Below are positions 9,721-22,561 of a DNA stretch of 64,000 bases, piece by piece. Location: positions 325,937 to 389,936 of the forward strand of contig OY760505.1 in NCBI GenBank assembly GCA_963663545.1, written 5' to 3'. The position numbers and the translations under genes were made by a program. Numbering within the stretch: the stretch's first letter is position 1; each line of letters begins with the position of its first letter. The stretch is from Candidatus Delongbacteria bacterium. GTDB lineage: Bacteria > CAIWAD01. Under the pieces are notes generated by a model that saw nothing but the letters and a program-made list of their open reading frames with translations, made no database searches and was not told the DNA's origin.

Positions 9721-9816
9721 TGCCCAAACTTCGTCCCATCGCATCGCCTCCAGCACGCCCTTGCGGTACTCCTGCCAGCGGCCCTGCTGAAGGGCCAGAC
9801 GGGCGTCGCGCAACGC
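9721..9816 (-). repeat. Direct repeat derived from tgt 3' end (copy 1, diverged: ...GRWQEYRKGVLEAMRWDEVWA)
   Basis: Nucleotide similarity to 15541..15650 and to the genuine tgt 3' end at 21425..21530. It translates to a Tgt C-terminus-like peptide. Confidence 0.7.
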
Positions 9817-12393
9817 CTATTTTAGCAACAAAACCTTCCGTGTCTGCGCCACATCTTCTGTGCGCAAGGTGATGAAGTAAACGCCGCTGGCCAGCGCTTG
9901 GCCATCAAAGCGAACCTGATGCTCGCCGGGCATGAAATCCCCTTCGGCCAAATCGGCCACAAGCTGCCCGCACAGGTTGTAGGCGGAAAGACGCAGATGC
10001 GTGGGTGCCTGTATGATAAAGGGAATCGTCGTTACCGGATTGAAGGGATTGGGATACGCGTCACCCAGTGTCGGCGAGGCGGGAAGCGTGGCCGCCTTGA
10101 GCGGCGGCACCGCCAGCCAGGGATCACCCGGAGCCAGCGGACCGCCGGTGTAACCGATATCACAGCGCAGGCCGCCCAGCCCGGGCCACAGGGCAATGGC
10201 GGGAATCTCGCTATCGGGAAGATCCTGCCAGCTAGGATCTGGATCGCCCGCATCCACACAGGGCGAGTTGCTCGCTAGATACGGCACACCACGCTGCTCA
10301 TCGAAGCGCGCGTCGGCCACCACGAAATTACCTTCGCCGGGCTGCGCCTCCTGCAAACAACTATAGGTGAATGGCGGCGTGTACTTATCGCCGGCGTACC
10401 ATTCATGCAGCTCGTGCCCCAAGCTGATATAGCTGCAATTGTTCACCAGGATGTTGCGCCATACCGAATACCTTGGGCGAATTCGAATATTGTACGTGTT
10501 GCTCTCGTGCGTGAGGAACTTGGTGTTGCAGTCCACCAGAGTGACGTTTTCCACATGAACGCTATCGCTACAGACACAAAAGGGGTCCTGCTCACCGACA
10601 TCGTAGGCTACGCCAGGAAAGATTCTTAGCGTATCTGTGTTCTGAATCAGAACGTTTTGCACCCGCGCAAAACAGACAGAATCGTAGGGTGCGGGAATTC
10701 CTGAAGCACGCAGAGCATAGCGGTTGTTGTCGATGTATTGACAATTGCGCACCGTCAAACGCCTGGCTGAAAACTCGCTGGCGCCGTCGTCATTGTCCAC
10801 AAACAGGCAGTCCTCCACCAGCATGTCGCCCTTTGACAAGCCCAGCATCTGACGAGCACCAGCGGACACCGTGCTGCCAACGTGTATTAGGCGCAAATTC
10901 GGGTCAAAGGGCCAGGTATATTCCATGTTCTCGTACCGGTTGTGTAGCACACGCAGATTGCGCAACTCGAGACGACAGGGATGGCAGTACGCATATACGG
11001 ATATTGTAAGCACTCGAAATGGGCAACGGGTGCCACGGCTGAAGTAGTTGTAGGGGTCATCTAGGTCAATCACTTCATTGCCCTCACAAAGCAAGTCCTC
11101 AAAAACAAAGGTGCCTTCAGTATCTGAAAACTCTGCCTCTAACAGTGCTTTGCTAACAGCGTGCACTTCATGAAGCACGCCATCACCGTAATCGACCAAA
11201 TACTTCGGCGCAACGGAGGTGTTCCGGCAAAGCTCGCCATGACGCAGATTCATCCGCCTAGTGGCCATAGCTCTGCCTGGACCGGCAGAGTACAAAGTGT
11301 CCTCATCTCCTGGATCAGTAACATTGTCGTTAAAACGAAAATTGCTCAACTCGCCAAGCCGCCCACCGACGATTCCGAGCAGGCGCCAGGATCTACTTGA
11401 ACAACGTTCGAAGACCAGCCCGTCCACGGTGGTCATACTTTCGCAATGGATCATTGCGTAGAAGCTCGCGTCGTAGTTAAGCGGATCGTCCGAAACCGTG
11501 TTATCACTAATCTCAACATCTCGCACGCGCACATCCCGATCCGATGCGATGTTAAGAAGGGGGCTGTAGTTGTGAATGTGCGTCATGCGCACGCCCTGCA
11601 CATCAAGATCAAACTCGCTTCCCACATTAAACACAGAACAGCCGGAGTTACCGAAAAGGTGAAGATTGTGGAAGTCGACGCCTTCTACGCGAGTGTAGGT
11701 ATCGCTACCGAAGCTGAACTCTGCTTCGGCTACTGAATCCCCCTCCATGCTGACCTGCAGATCTCGGACTTCAAGGGTATCCTCAACACCGATTCGCACA
11801 CTGTATGACGAATACTCAAAGGATCTCGTGTCATCCATTACAAAGTGGCTGTTATACAAGCGAGTAGAACGTGGCGTTTCCGTGATCTGCACATGGGTGG
11901 AATCCACCAAGTACACATGGGGTTTTGCCATCAGATCTCGAGCAGCAACCCCAATCTCTGTACGGTTCCAGCGAAAACGCAGATGCTCCAGACGGGCATC
12001 GGCCAGTTCCCGCTGATGAATACCGCCTGGGAAATCGTAAGGAGGTTCATCTAAACGCCTCATCCCCATGCCGTGCTGTATGGTAAAGCCCACAACGCGG
12101 CAGAAATGCGGATCTGTATTGCGAATAGTCAGCACGGTGCCCGTCAGTTCTCCATCGAGCTGAGTTTCCAGAATGTCGGTGGTGTCGCCGCTGAACAGAT
12201 AATTGGAGCACAGAGTCAGATCCCGGTCCGGCGTCACCAGATGAACCGGCCAGCAGCCACGGGCCACCAGCACCGTATCGCCAGGCTCGGTCTGGTCCAG
12301 GGCCTGCTGGAGATTGTCGATCTGGGAAGGGAACTCAAGAACAGCCGCACGGGCACAGAAGCAGCAAACAAGCAACAGCAGGTGGCGTATCAT
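9817..12393 (-). CDS. Parallel beta-helix repeat protein with T9SS C-terminal sorting domain (paralog A1)
   Basis: Start set at the ATG of MIRHLLLLVCCFCARAAVLEF, preceded by AAGGAGGAG. Repetitive right-handed beta-helix style body; ends ...GVYFITLRTEDVAQTRKVLLLK. Near-identical to 15634..18204 except for an internal cassette. Confidence 0.75.
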   Translation of the reverse strand: MIRHLLLLVCCFCARAAVLEFPSQIDNLQQALDQTEPGDTVLVARGCWPVHLVTPDRDLTLCSNYLFSGDTTDILETQLDGELTGTVLTIRNTDPHFCRVVGFTIQHGMGMRRLDEPPYDFPGGIHQRELADARLEHLRFRWNRTEIGVAARDLMAKPHVYLVDSTHVQITETPRSTRLYNSHFVMDDTRSFEYSSYSVRIGVEDTLEVRDLQVSMEGDSVAEAEFSFGSDTYTRVEGVDFHNLHLFGNSGCSVFNVGSEFDLDVQGVRMTHIHNYSPLLNIASDRDVRVRDVEISDNTVSDDPLNYDASFYAMIHCESMTTVDGLVFERCSSRSWRLLGIVGGRLGELSNFRFNDNVTDPGDEDTLYSAGPGRAMATRRMNLRHGELCRNTSVAPKYLVDYGDGVLHEVHAVSKALLEAEFSDTEGTFVFEDLLCEGNEVIDLDDPYNYFSRGTRCPFRVLTISVYAYCHPCRLELRNLRVLHNRYENMEYTWPFDPNLRLIHVGSTVSAGARQMLGLSKGDMLVEDCLFVDNDDGASEFSARRLTVRNCQYIDNNRYALRASGIPAPYDSVCFARVQNVLIQNTDTLRIFPGVAYDVGEQDPFCVCSDSVHVENVTLVDCNTKFLTHESNTYNIRIRPRYSVWRNILVNNCSYISLGHELHEWYAGDKYTPPFTYSCLQEAQPGEGNFVVADARFDEQRGVPYLASNSPCVDAGDPDPSWQDLPDSEIPAIALWPGLGGLRCDIGYTGGPLAPGDPWLAVPPLKAATLPASPTLGDAYPNPFNPVTTIPFIIQAPTHLRLSAYNLCGQLVADLAEGDFMPGEHQVRFDGQALASGVYFITLRTEDVAQTRKVLLLK

Positions 12394-12420
12394 GATCTCT
12401 CCTCCTTGCACTCTTTCGCA

Positions 12421-21130: not shown

Positions 21131-21424
21131 GCTGTTCTCCAAATCATCTCTTGTGTTGCTGTGGTGGCTGTGCTACCACCTCTCGCGGGACAGGATAGTA
21201 CAGATTCCGGCGTGGCGCAACAGAAATCTGTTCTTATTCAAATTCTCACACACTCTGCCAAAGCGTACCTTTCAAAACCTGTACGTCATGAATTCTGCTA
21301 TGTGATCTGTTCCATCTTGCAGACTATCCAATTGCCCCCTTCATTACCTTCAGCTCGAGTACAGCGCGTTGGTCGCGGTGACCGAACATGAATATCCATC
21401 TTTTCCGCTGCACAATGAAGCAGC

Positions 21425-22561
21425 TCAGCGCTCGCCCTCGTAGGCAGCCAGCACACCCTTGCGGTAGTCCTGCCAGCGGCCCTCCAGGATGGCCCTGCGT
21501 GCATCACGCACCAGCTTGAGGAAGTAGTTGAGGTTGTGGATGGTGCCCAGGCGCATAGCGCTGAACTCCTCCACGTGATACAAATGCCGCAAGTAGGCGC
21601 GGTCGTAAGTGCGGCAGGTGTAACACGAGCACTCGGGGTCCAGGGGCTCGTTGAAGCTGCGGGCAAAGCGCGCCGATTTGGCGCTCACGCGTCCCTGGCT
21701 GGTAAACAGCGTCGCCTTGCGCGCATTGCGAGTCGGTAACACGCAGTCAAACATGTCCACGCCCAACTCGATGCTCTCGATGAGGTCCACCGGCGTGCCG
21801 ACGCCCATCAGATAGCGCGGCAGATGCGGCGGCAGGCACTCGCAGCAGAGTTGCGTCATGGCGCGCATGTCCGGCTTGGCTTCGCCCACCGAAAGGCCGC
21901 CAATGGCCACGCCGGGCCACTCCTGCTCCAGAATGTGCTCCACACTGCGGCGGCGCAGATCTTCATAGACTCCACCCTGAATGATGGGAAAGAGCGCCTG
22001 CCGATGGCCGTAGAGCGGCTCACTGTCCAGCCAGGCCTGGCGGCAGCGGCGCGCCCAGCGCTGGGTGAGGCCCAGGCTGTTCTCAGTGTAGGCATGGTCG
22101 GCGCGTCCATCGGGGCACTCGTCCAGTACCATCATGATGTCGCTGCCAAGCGTGCGCTGAATGCCCACCACTGATTCGGGTGTGAAGCAGTGCTTGCTGC
22201 CGTCGAGGTGGCTGCGGAAATGGGCGCCGTCTTCGCGCAGTTTGCGCAGCGCGCCCAGACTGAAGACCTGAAAACCGCCGGAGTCCGTCAACATGGGACG
22301 CGGCCAGCGCATGAACTGGTGCAGGCCACCTGCCTCGTGCATCAGCTCGGTGCCAGGGCGCAGGTAGAGGTGATAGGTGTTACCCAGAATGATGGGCGCA
22401 TCCATCTCGAGCAGGTCGCGGGTTTCCAAGGTCTTTACGCTGGCCCGTGTGCCGACGGGCATGAAGATGGGCGTGGGGACGGTTCCGTGGGGCAGTACTA
22501 GTTCACCGGCGCGGGCGCGTCCGTCGGTGGCGTGCACGCTAAAAATGTCGCGGAGTTCCAT
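21425..22561 (-). CDS. tgt: Queuine tRNA-ribosyltransferase (tRNA-guanine transglycosylase)
   Basis: [55 protein letters not shown], Zn site [17 protein letters not shown]. Confidence 0.9.

Follow-up and report, generated by a model that had tools for sequence, protein, structure and literature searches.

This study analyzed a 64-kb stretch of a Candidatus Delongbacteria genome (contig OY760505.1; hereafter the window, within which all coordinates are given unless another contig is named) in which tgt, the gene for queuine tRNA-ribosyltransferase, adjoins two pairs of genes, here called A and B, for cargo proteins of the type IX secretion system (T9SS). Self-comparison of the window confirmed that the two pairs form a head-to-tail duplication of two units and that direct repeats derived from the tgt 3' end bound the units. 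Along the minus strand, tgt comes first and is followed by B2, A2, a 93-nt tgt fragment, B1, A1, a 67-nt tgt fragment, a 44-nt tail, and a DUF3916 gene. The same layout (fragment-A1-B1-fragment-A2-B2-complete tgt in forward coordinates, all genes on the minus strand) had been proposed in the original prediction, and both the self-comparison and the map of open reading frames (ORFs) bore it out. Within the 9700-21500 region, 9750-14557 matched 15567-20362 at 95-97% overall; the two matching blocks were 9750-11787 against 15567-17604 (97.3%) and 11960-14557 against 17771-20362 (95.3%). The spacing between the units was 5817 nt and dropped to 5805 nt past small indels. Contigs of sister genomes and other relatives are labelled L081, L082, L083, L084, and L088.

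Both fragments aligned to the 3' end of tgt. The middle fragment matched tgt at 60 of 62 nt (15541-15602 against 21422-21483; E = 7e-24), the distal fragment at 34 of 36 nt (9750-9785 against 21448-21483; E = 2e-9), and a tblastn search with Tgt residues 351-378 found only two extra places in the 64 kb, both of them the fragments. The fragments had been described as copies, about 100 bp long, of the last 100 nt or so of tgt. Their tgt-3' origin stood, but their dimensions had to be redrawn: they are 93 and 67 nt long, and only 62 and 36 nt of these are near-identical to tgt. The middle fragment ends at 15633 rather than 15650, since 15634-15650 is the end of A2, and the distal fragment starts at 9750 rather than 9721, the positions 9721-9749 not being tgt-like. 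The core common to all three repeats is 36 nt only. The window Tgt itself is full-length, with a tail typical of its family.

The middle copy begins at the base after the A2 stop codon and gives a 29-residue reading in the tgt frame. Its 60/62 match to tgt runs from GGCCGCTGG to 3 nt beyond the stop codon and includes a right arm that agrees at 26 of 26 nt, stop codon included; over the 60 nt beyond the match, identity fell to 18/60, which is the chance level. The distal copy, read in the tgt frame after the A1 stop codon, gives ALRDARLALQQGRWQEYRKGVLEAMRWDEVWA. It is 100% identical to the corresponding part of the middle fragment and is without the last 8 tgt codons and the stop codon; between the A stop codon and the last base of GTGCTGG (9750/15567) the two copies do not differ, and beyond it they are unrelated. 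The 5' 31 nt of the fragments, the left arm, matched tgt at 18 of 31 positions, which is above chance in a fixed register (p about 0.001), and were more diverged from tgt than the following 62 nt (13/31 versus 2/62 differences; Fisher p = 5e-6). Because the left arm is far more diverged than the core, the distal fragment appears to be older than the duplication or of a different origin. The fragments also retain the ancestral GAG (Glu) codon found in the sister tgt, whereas the window tgt has GAC.

These comparisons revealed that the middle copy is a hybrid, with the left arm of the distal copy and the right arm and stop codon of tgt; at both core mismatches it carries the distal type. Such a hybrid would be the product expected of unequal recombination between the outer repeats at the core. 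Given the bases present today, only the last 7 nt of the core, GTGCTGG, could have hosted an exchange joining the distal copy to tgt. Because the junction between the A stop codon and the fragment is identical in both units, it was formed once and then copied.

The 44-nt tail downstream of the distal fragment (9706-9749) showed no significant similarity to the tgt end or to the other sequences compared, and its similarity to the 49-nt spacer between tgt and DUF3916 in the sister genomes was not significant (p = 0.72). We considered whether the tail is a displaced native tgt end; the idea was not supported, and neither the translation nor the DNA matched any Tgt tail. A search with the distal translation (ALRDAR...EAMRWDEVWA) against 1.84 billion representative proteins, which has low power with so short a query and a 50%-clustered library, returned only two unrelated repeat proteins, and none of the 24 Delongbacteria-type Tgt tails inspected resembled the tail of the distal fragment.

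The junctions bear on the proposal that the array arose in a single complex replicative rearrangement, by fork stalling with template switching or by microhomology-mediated break-induced replication, with the tgt scraps as junction filler. Junctions at or beside very short homologies, a fragment that starts exactly at the A stop codon, and a distal junction consisting of a 67-nt tgt piece followed by 44 unplaced nt all agree with such an event. However, the A-stop/fragment junction shared by the two units points to a single formation followed by copying, a left arm differing at 13 of 31 nt from the present tgt argues against recent templating from the window tgt, and the deep divergence of the unit heads described below is not predicted. 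We consider this proposal quite unlikely.

The 90%-identity cluster of the window Tgt held three further members, and only three related assemblies were present in the databases searched. Two sister genomes (L082 and L084) encode a Tgt that is 91% identical in amino acid (aa) sequence to that of the window and are syntenic with window positions 21438-32487, over at least 11 kb upstream of the array. In both, tgt is followed by the 49-nt spacer and then by DUF3916, which is the unoccupied site. Because the sister tgt is directly followed by DUF3916, the whole array is a lineage-specific insertion, and DUF3916 marks its far edge. An exchange between the tgt core and the distal core is predicted to leave a Tgt ending in ...GVLEAMRWDEVWA that adjoins DUF3916. 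The sister Tgt ends in ...VLAAYESESK, and because it retains the ...LAAYE... tail, the sister state is not a deletion product of the array. The comparison of copy states in related genomes suggested in the original prediction was informative in part: it yielded the zero-copy site in L082 and L084 and no one-copy state among the three related assemblies.

A B-A pair also occurs away from tgt. The sister organism carries a single pair at another locus (L081), flanked by the DUF1015 gene and xdhC-type genes, where the A protein is 62-65% aa identical to those of the window and the B gene is split by frameshifts; a terminator precedes the pair, and no tgt-like sequence lies on either side. In a distant genome (L088), a B-like gene (26% aa identity) is directly followed by an A-like gene (28%), likewise with no adjacent tgt-like sequence. 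Since the L081 and L088 pairs are without the scraps, B-then-A is a conserved module, and the tgt scraps are peculiar to the window locus. The empty site in the sisters, together with their single scrap-free pair elsewhere, indicates that insertion and duplication are specific to the window lineage. In more distant Delongbacteria, ETF genes follow tgt, which places a break in synteny downstream of tgt. When GTDB species genomes were scanned with Tgt, the best among the matches listed was 59% identical, and protein searches of relatives in JGI gave none above 74% Tgt identity.

The third related assembly (L083) is an independent assembly of the same strain and was 99.9% identical to the window over 19425-32163. 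It confirms the tgt-B2 junction, and its contig ends inside the repeated part of B. This result bears on whether the array is an assembly artefact in which a metagenome assembler joined two haplotypes of a single-unit locus end to end. The units do look like alleles, with 99.3% background identity and hypervariable islands, the source is a metagenome-assembled contig of 3.72 Mb, and the other assembly stops inside the repeat. Nevertheless, the middle join is precise and in register within the 36-nt core, and neither DUF3916 nor upstream tgt sequence flanks it; two haplotypes would not be joined in this way by an overlap-based assembler, and the units are different enough for unique placement by long reads. 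We regard an artefact as very improbable. The 11.7-kb region is prone to break or collapse in short-read or low-coverage assemblies, which matters for comparisons of gene content.

The two units are near-identical over most of their length and sharply different in places. Outside the divergent islands, 25 differences were counted in 3782 nt (0.66%), in agreement with the expectation that the A and B genes would be approximately 95-100% identical outside defined cassettes. Twelve patches totalling 903 nt held 250 differences (28%), and the unit heads, which comprise the first 1.1 kb (the upstream region and B residues 1-275), differed at 57% of positions. Between B1 and B2, the heads shared about 43% nt identity and 30-44% aa identity, and the remainder was approximately 98% identical apart from small patches at 12701-12878, 13482-13492, and 14152-14204. 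The patch edges were abrupt; at 13482-13492, 9 of 11 nt differ between long identical runs. Overall, differences between the units were clustered about 40-fold. Because they are clustered and not uniform, as a one-step duplication predicts, extra recombination events are required. The expectation of identical units from one duplication step did not hold, given the divergence of the heads and its start only 3 nt after the tgt stop codon.

The sister genomes provided a measure of the age of the islands. In the 115-aa variable block of A, A2 was 45-75% identical to the sister A genes and 25-55% identical to A1, and the A1 version was the outlier, with 25-55% aa identity to both A2 and the sister A genes. 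B1, B2, and the sister B were roughly equidistant in their N-terminal domains (30-44% aa). Among the smaller B patches, 9 sites had the sister-like residue in B1 and 8 had it in B2, and at 22 sites neither protein had it. As judged from these alignments, the islands are old alleles whose age matches that of the split from the sister genomes, and the scaffold around them is recently shared.

Three other sources of the islands were considered and rejected. Decay or targeted mutagenesis was ruled out, the islands being old alleles. A diversity-generating retroelement was rejected, as no reverse transcriptase was found among the large ORFs scanned in the window and no adenine bias was seen; among 102 patch differences examined, all bases were involved and most changes were transitions. 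An invertible promoter or shufflon was rejected because no meaningful inverted repeats flank the unit heads.

On balance, we lean modestly toward an account that combines unequal recombination at the tgt-derived repeats with patchwise exchange between diverged alleles. A B-A module would first have been inserted between tgt and DUF3916 in the window lineage, leaving, at the far junction, a partial copy of the tgt 3' end joined to the A stop codon; homology-facilitated illegitimate recombination and templated junction insertion are candidate pathways for this step. The 36-nt core of the fragment would then have recombined with the tgt core, on a sister chromosome or on DNA of a closely related strain, adding a second unit in tandem and yielding the hybrid middle repeat. 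The units would either have been different alleles when joined or have exchanged segments later by gene conversion or import. The simplest version would be an incoming unit from a related strain with a different variable-head allele, because the similarity between the middle repeat and tgt ends after the stop codon and the heads are deeply diverged.

Several observations weigh against this account. The original prediction had invoked unequal homologous recombination between direct repeats; the hybrid middle repeat agrees with it, but only 36 nt are shared, so the event was not a 100-bp homologous exchange. The outer repeats match over 36 nt at 94%, their longest perfect run is 14 nt, and the crossover window is 7 nt. 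Homology this short is a poor substrate for RecA-type recombination, which has a size requirement. The event would instead have been short-homology or illegitimate recombination, or exchange with a slightly different tgt allele, and the founding repeats may have been more alike at the time. Unequal recombination leaves the origin of the distal fragment and the 44-nt tail unexplained. The divergence of the left arm needs an extra assumption, namely an older origin with a refreshed core or a different tgt allele. A single-unit state was found in no genome examined, and the copy number rests on one assembly.

The mosaic also bears on an older history, in which an ancient tandem duplication was followed by concerted evolution: conversion would have homogenized approximately 4.8 kb and, separately, the middle core and right arm against tgt, and the islands would be the parts that conversion missed or that selection kept different. 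Islands as divergent as sister-genome paralogues, sharp boundaries and tiny patches that resemble the edges of conversion tracts, and a sister-like state split between both units are consistent with this history. However, the non-coding middle fragment would need to have remained at 60/62 to tgt with similarity dropping to chance level from 3 nt beyond the stop codon, repeated short conversions from tgt would be needed, and the distal fragment is not explained. We consider an ancient duplication unlikely, and the data do not separate import from a related strain from an older duplication with conversion with confidence.

The site is also reminiscent of mobile-element integration. When large ORFs selected from all parts of the 64 kb were scanned with Pfam, the genes recognized included a Bat/MoxR operon, trpF, a methyltransferase-fold gene, many type IX cargo genes, S1, and a radical-SAM enzyme, with no integrase, transposase, excisionase, or reverse transcriptase among them. 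The unit had no match in plasmid and phage collections. The distal repeat is followed by the unrelated 44 nt and not by a displaced native tgt end such as an attR should carry, and a search of a literature library for tgt as an integration site found nothing relevant. We weighed these results against a model in which B-A is an integrase-less cassette captured site-specifically at the 36-nt tgt 3' site by a recombinase encoded elsewhere in the genome; two integrations in tandem would have produced the three repeats as attL, an attP-like junction, and attR. In favour of this model, tandem site-specific integrations give such a chimeric repeat pattern, sister genomes have an unoccupied site, and the Tgt reading frame and stop codon are restored by the right arm. 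All four of the above results count against it, as do the L081 and L088 modules, which occur without tgt-like sequence. Site-specific capture of this kind is highly improbable.

In a related proposal, the tgt end would be a capture site at which B-A units with replacement tgt tails are added at the 36-nt core, older units being pushed downstream, through a recombinase encoded elsewhere or a dedicated short-homology pathway. If this were true, a candidate phylum would possess an integron-like or displacement-like array that serves type IX cargo; we consider the proposal very unlikely.

All four proteins carry the T9SS C-terminal sorting domain (PF18962/TIGR04183) at 28-44 bits, above the cut-offs of 27 bits (Pfam) and 23 bits (TIGRFAM). 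For the PF13229 beta-helix family, the scores were 38.7 bits for B1, 23.3 for B2, 17.7 for A1, and 23.3 for A2, and only B1 exceeded the cut-off of 25.9. The description of the genes as a beta-helix T9SS pair was correct regarding the sorting domain and solid regarding the beta-helix of B1, and it exceeds the family scores for B2, A1, and A2. B2 comprises, in order, a putative signal peptide, the variable N-terminal domain, a putative beta-helix, a conserved body, a helical segment, and a type-A C-terminal sorting domain. For A2, the AlphaFold2 model had a mean pLDDT of 52, poor for the protein as a whole, but its all-beta centre was confident; in Foldseek, nearly all of its matches were right-handed beta-helix lyases, glycosidases, and phage tailspikes, all of them weak, with TM scores no higher than 0.39. 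No usable model of B2 was obtained (pLDDT 36), and a PDB sequence search with A and B found nothing besides the sorting domain. Judged by eye, the leaders of A1, A2, and B2 are of the typical hydrophobic kind, and that of B1, counted from TTG, has a short, uncharged start.

Relatives are few. In a search of 5.8 billion proteins, with weak matches over approximately 10% of the query (the sorting-domain end) set aside, the only relatives were A2, B1, the sister A (P0002), and one 28%-identical protein (P0003). The array most likely encodes two variants of a secreted or surface-attached beta-helix pair, the variable modules of which are probably ligand-facing. A separate feature of A is its N-terminal module: residues ~40-130 (12000-12275 and 17815-18085) were 95-98% aa identical to both sister A paralogues, with only 76-79% identity in the DNA of the same span, and the rest of A was 25-88% identical, mostly 50-65%. 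The module is also the best-kept part (43% aa) in the distant L088 homologue and appears to be under unusually strong constraint.

The upstream regions of units 1 and 2 showed random-level identity except for a 26-nt stem-loop element and the Shine-Dalgarno sequence (GGAGAA in unit 2, GGAGAG in unit 1). The element, GAGAGGTGGT(CA/AG)CACAGCCACCACAG, lies at 15385-15410 and 21159-21184 (2 matches versus 0 expected). The original prediction had placed a conserved element about 60 nt upstream of the B starts; the element is real, but its distance is 26-28 nt from the B2 ATG (21130) and from the aligned B1 CTG, or 44 nt from the B1 TTG (15340). It folds into a 6-bp stem with a 6-nt loop, and the upstream regions are no more stable than shuffled sequences. 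It is not present upstream of the sister B gene. The B2 ATG (21128-21130) aligns with CTG (15356-15358) in B1, for which the first in-frame option is the TTG at 15340. Because CTG replaces ATG and the leader from TTG is short and uncharged, B1 may be poorly initiated, and this copy may be weakly expressed or poorly exported. A GC-rich hairpin followed by a T-rich run, identical in both units, lies between the B stop codon and the A start, and B and A may be transcriptionally separated or attenuated by it. No known Rfam family was found in the window. Elsewhere, a hairpin with 17-bp arms at 8695-8733 occupies the gap where the second C25 peptidase gene and a sorting-domain remnant described below converge, and is probably a terminator shared by both.

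Table 1. Coordinates of the features of the tgt-adjacent array and its surroundings in the 64-kb window.
Feature	Positions	Strand	Evidence or remark
tgt (queuine tRNA-ribosyltransferase), 378 aa	21425-22561	minus	PF01702, E = 4e-148; complete, full length
tgt-borne repeat, copy 3 (last 93 nt + 3)	21422-21514	minus	repeat alignment
Copy 3 sub-parts	host left arm 21484-21514; core 21448-21483; right arm + stop + 3 nt 21422-21447	minus	
Unit-2 upstream region, tgt stop to B2 ATG	21131-21421	minus	
B2, 946 aa, T9SS cargo	18290-21130 (ORF alternatively to 21142)	minus	PF18962 3e-11; PF13229 5e-5 (below cut-off); TIGR04183
B2 variable N-terminal domain (putative beta-helix), aa 1-275	20240-21130	minus	alignment to B1
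Hairpin (12 bp, GC-rich), then CTTTCCCTTT (T-rich run), B stop to A start	18245-18273; identical copy 12434-12462	minus	
A2, 856 aa, T9SS cargo	15634-18204	minus	PF18962 7e-7
A2 variable block, aa 130-245	17444-17865	minus	alignments
Middle tgt-3' fragment, hybrid repeat, 93 nt	15541-15633	minus	repeat alignment
Middle fragment sub-parts	left arm 15603-15633; core 15567-15602; right arm + stop + 3 nt 15541-15566	minus	
Unit-1 upstream region	15341-15540	minus	
B1, 953 aa counted from TTG	12479-15340	minus	PF13229 1e-9 (above cut-off); PF18962 6e-11
B1 variable N-terminal beta-helix domain	14435-15340	minus	
A1, 858 aa	9817-12393	minus	T9SS sorting domain
A1 variable block	11627-12054	minus	
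Distal tgt-3' fragment, 67 nt	9750-9816	minus	left arm 9786-9816; core 9750-9785
Tail of 44 nt between distal fragment and DUF3916 ATG	9706-9749	minus	
DUF3916 gene	9172-9705	minus	PF13079 3e-14
Small sorting-domain proteins	39202-39876; 41542-42318; 43831-44652; 51164-51838	minus	in PF03781 array

The surroundings of the array were also compared with those in the relatives. Directly after the stop codon of A-type genes, the sister contigs carry simple repeats, namely a (GGTATC)x7 tandem repeat at approximately 17660-17710 of L082 and a CGAT-rich run at approximately 12600-12650 of L081, in the position that the tgt fragment occupies in the window. Approximately 1 kb downstream of its complete A gene, L081 also carries an isolated 29-codon piece (13650-13736) that is 66% identical to the end of A and may have been left by a further A copy. 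In L084 (14507-15790 and 19904-20561), an A-like gene downstream of DUF3916 is reduced to pieces of 176 and 100 aa, and the cargo cluster ends in an IS110-family transposase; both observations add to the evidence for instability of the region after tgt in the clade. The window carries a 72-aa remnant at 8759-8977 on the minus strand that consists of the sorting domain only and ends in ...TQKVLLLK. It corresponds to the C-terminus of a 1009-aa cargo gene that follows DUF3916 in the sisters; the window lacks the rest of this gene, together with the A-like and 949-aa genes that come next.

Tandem paralogue arrays are common in the window. Eight FGE-sulfatase-family (PF03781) paralogues with 48-77% mutual aa identity occupy 37978-54793 on the minus strand, interleaved with four small type IX sorting-domain proteins that are 85-93% identical, and form a much larger tandem family expansion than the tgt-adjacent array. 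On the plus strand, two adjacent C25-peptidase/MAM/BACON proteins of 1382 and 1395 aa (22-4170 and 4488-8675) are 69% identical over their full length and represent an older tandem duplicate. In distant Delongbacteria, S1 and the radical-SAM gene stand immediately upstream of a 1300-aa cargo gene, the methyltransferase-fold gene, and tgt. In the window, the S1/radical-SAM block (56249-59529) lies approximately 29 kb from the block on the cargo-tgt side (23282-32487), and the Bat/MoxR operon and the FGE-sulfatase array separate them.

The array is a cleanly resolved natural tandem duplication, with all three junction repeats intact and the sister site empty, and its 4.8 kb of near-identity should allow further changes in copy number. 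Its mosaic structure reveals that recombination between diverged alleles has acted on secreted proteins, a local instance of growth and diversification in the large type IX cargo repertoire of Candidatus Delongbacteria, an uncultured phylum.

Tandem duplication and amplification through unequal recombination at short direct repeats is known from classical cases in Salmonella and Escherichia coli. The tgt-adjacent array shares with them the order repeat-unit-repeat-unit-repeat, a join repeat that is a hybrid of the outer two, and long identical units that can drive later expansion or loss. It differs in its founding repeats, which are a gene 3' end and a 67-nt scrap with 36 nt in common, and in its units, which are mosaics with islands of 28-57% divergence. 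Genomic islands and prophages integrate in the 3' ends of genes, bring a replacement 3' end, and sometimes do so in tandem. As in those elements, partial 3'-end duplicates flank the units, the target gene is intact, and the site in relatives is empty; unlike them, the array has no integrase in or near the units and no displaced gene end at the distal repeat, and homologous modules occur elsewhere without att-like sequence.

Tandem paralogues of surface and secreted proteins evolve in concert, with variable blocks maintained by recombination. The near-identical scaffolds, the sharply bounded divergent blocks, and the export of the proteins are features in common; in contrast, only two copies are present here, both apparently expressible, with no silent donor cassettes, and no invertible or mutagenic machinery was found. 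The type VI secretion (T6SS) effector-immunity arrays of Vibrio cholerae and the orphan C-terminal modules of Rhs and contact-dependent inhibition (CDI) systems have been proposed to arise via homology-facilitated illegitimate recombination (PMC5361080). These displacement arrays and ours have in common a variable module behind a conserved anchor (here tgt), an older module displaced downstream with a remnant of the anchor 3' end before it, divergence that begins immediately after the anchor, and the lack of a known dedicated recombinase. The anchor here, by contrast, is a housekeeping tRNA-modification gene unrelated to the cargo, and the modules are whole secreted-protein pairs, not toxin tips with immunity genes. 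The remnants in the window also do not represent independent displacement events, because both share one identical junction. Set beside these systems, the tgt-adjacent array is an ordinary tandem duplication of a well-known class that reveals no new mechanism, and it is notable mainly for its sharply bounded islands of very old divergence within near-identical copies.

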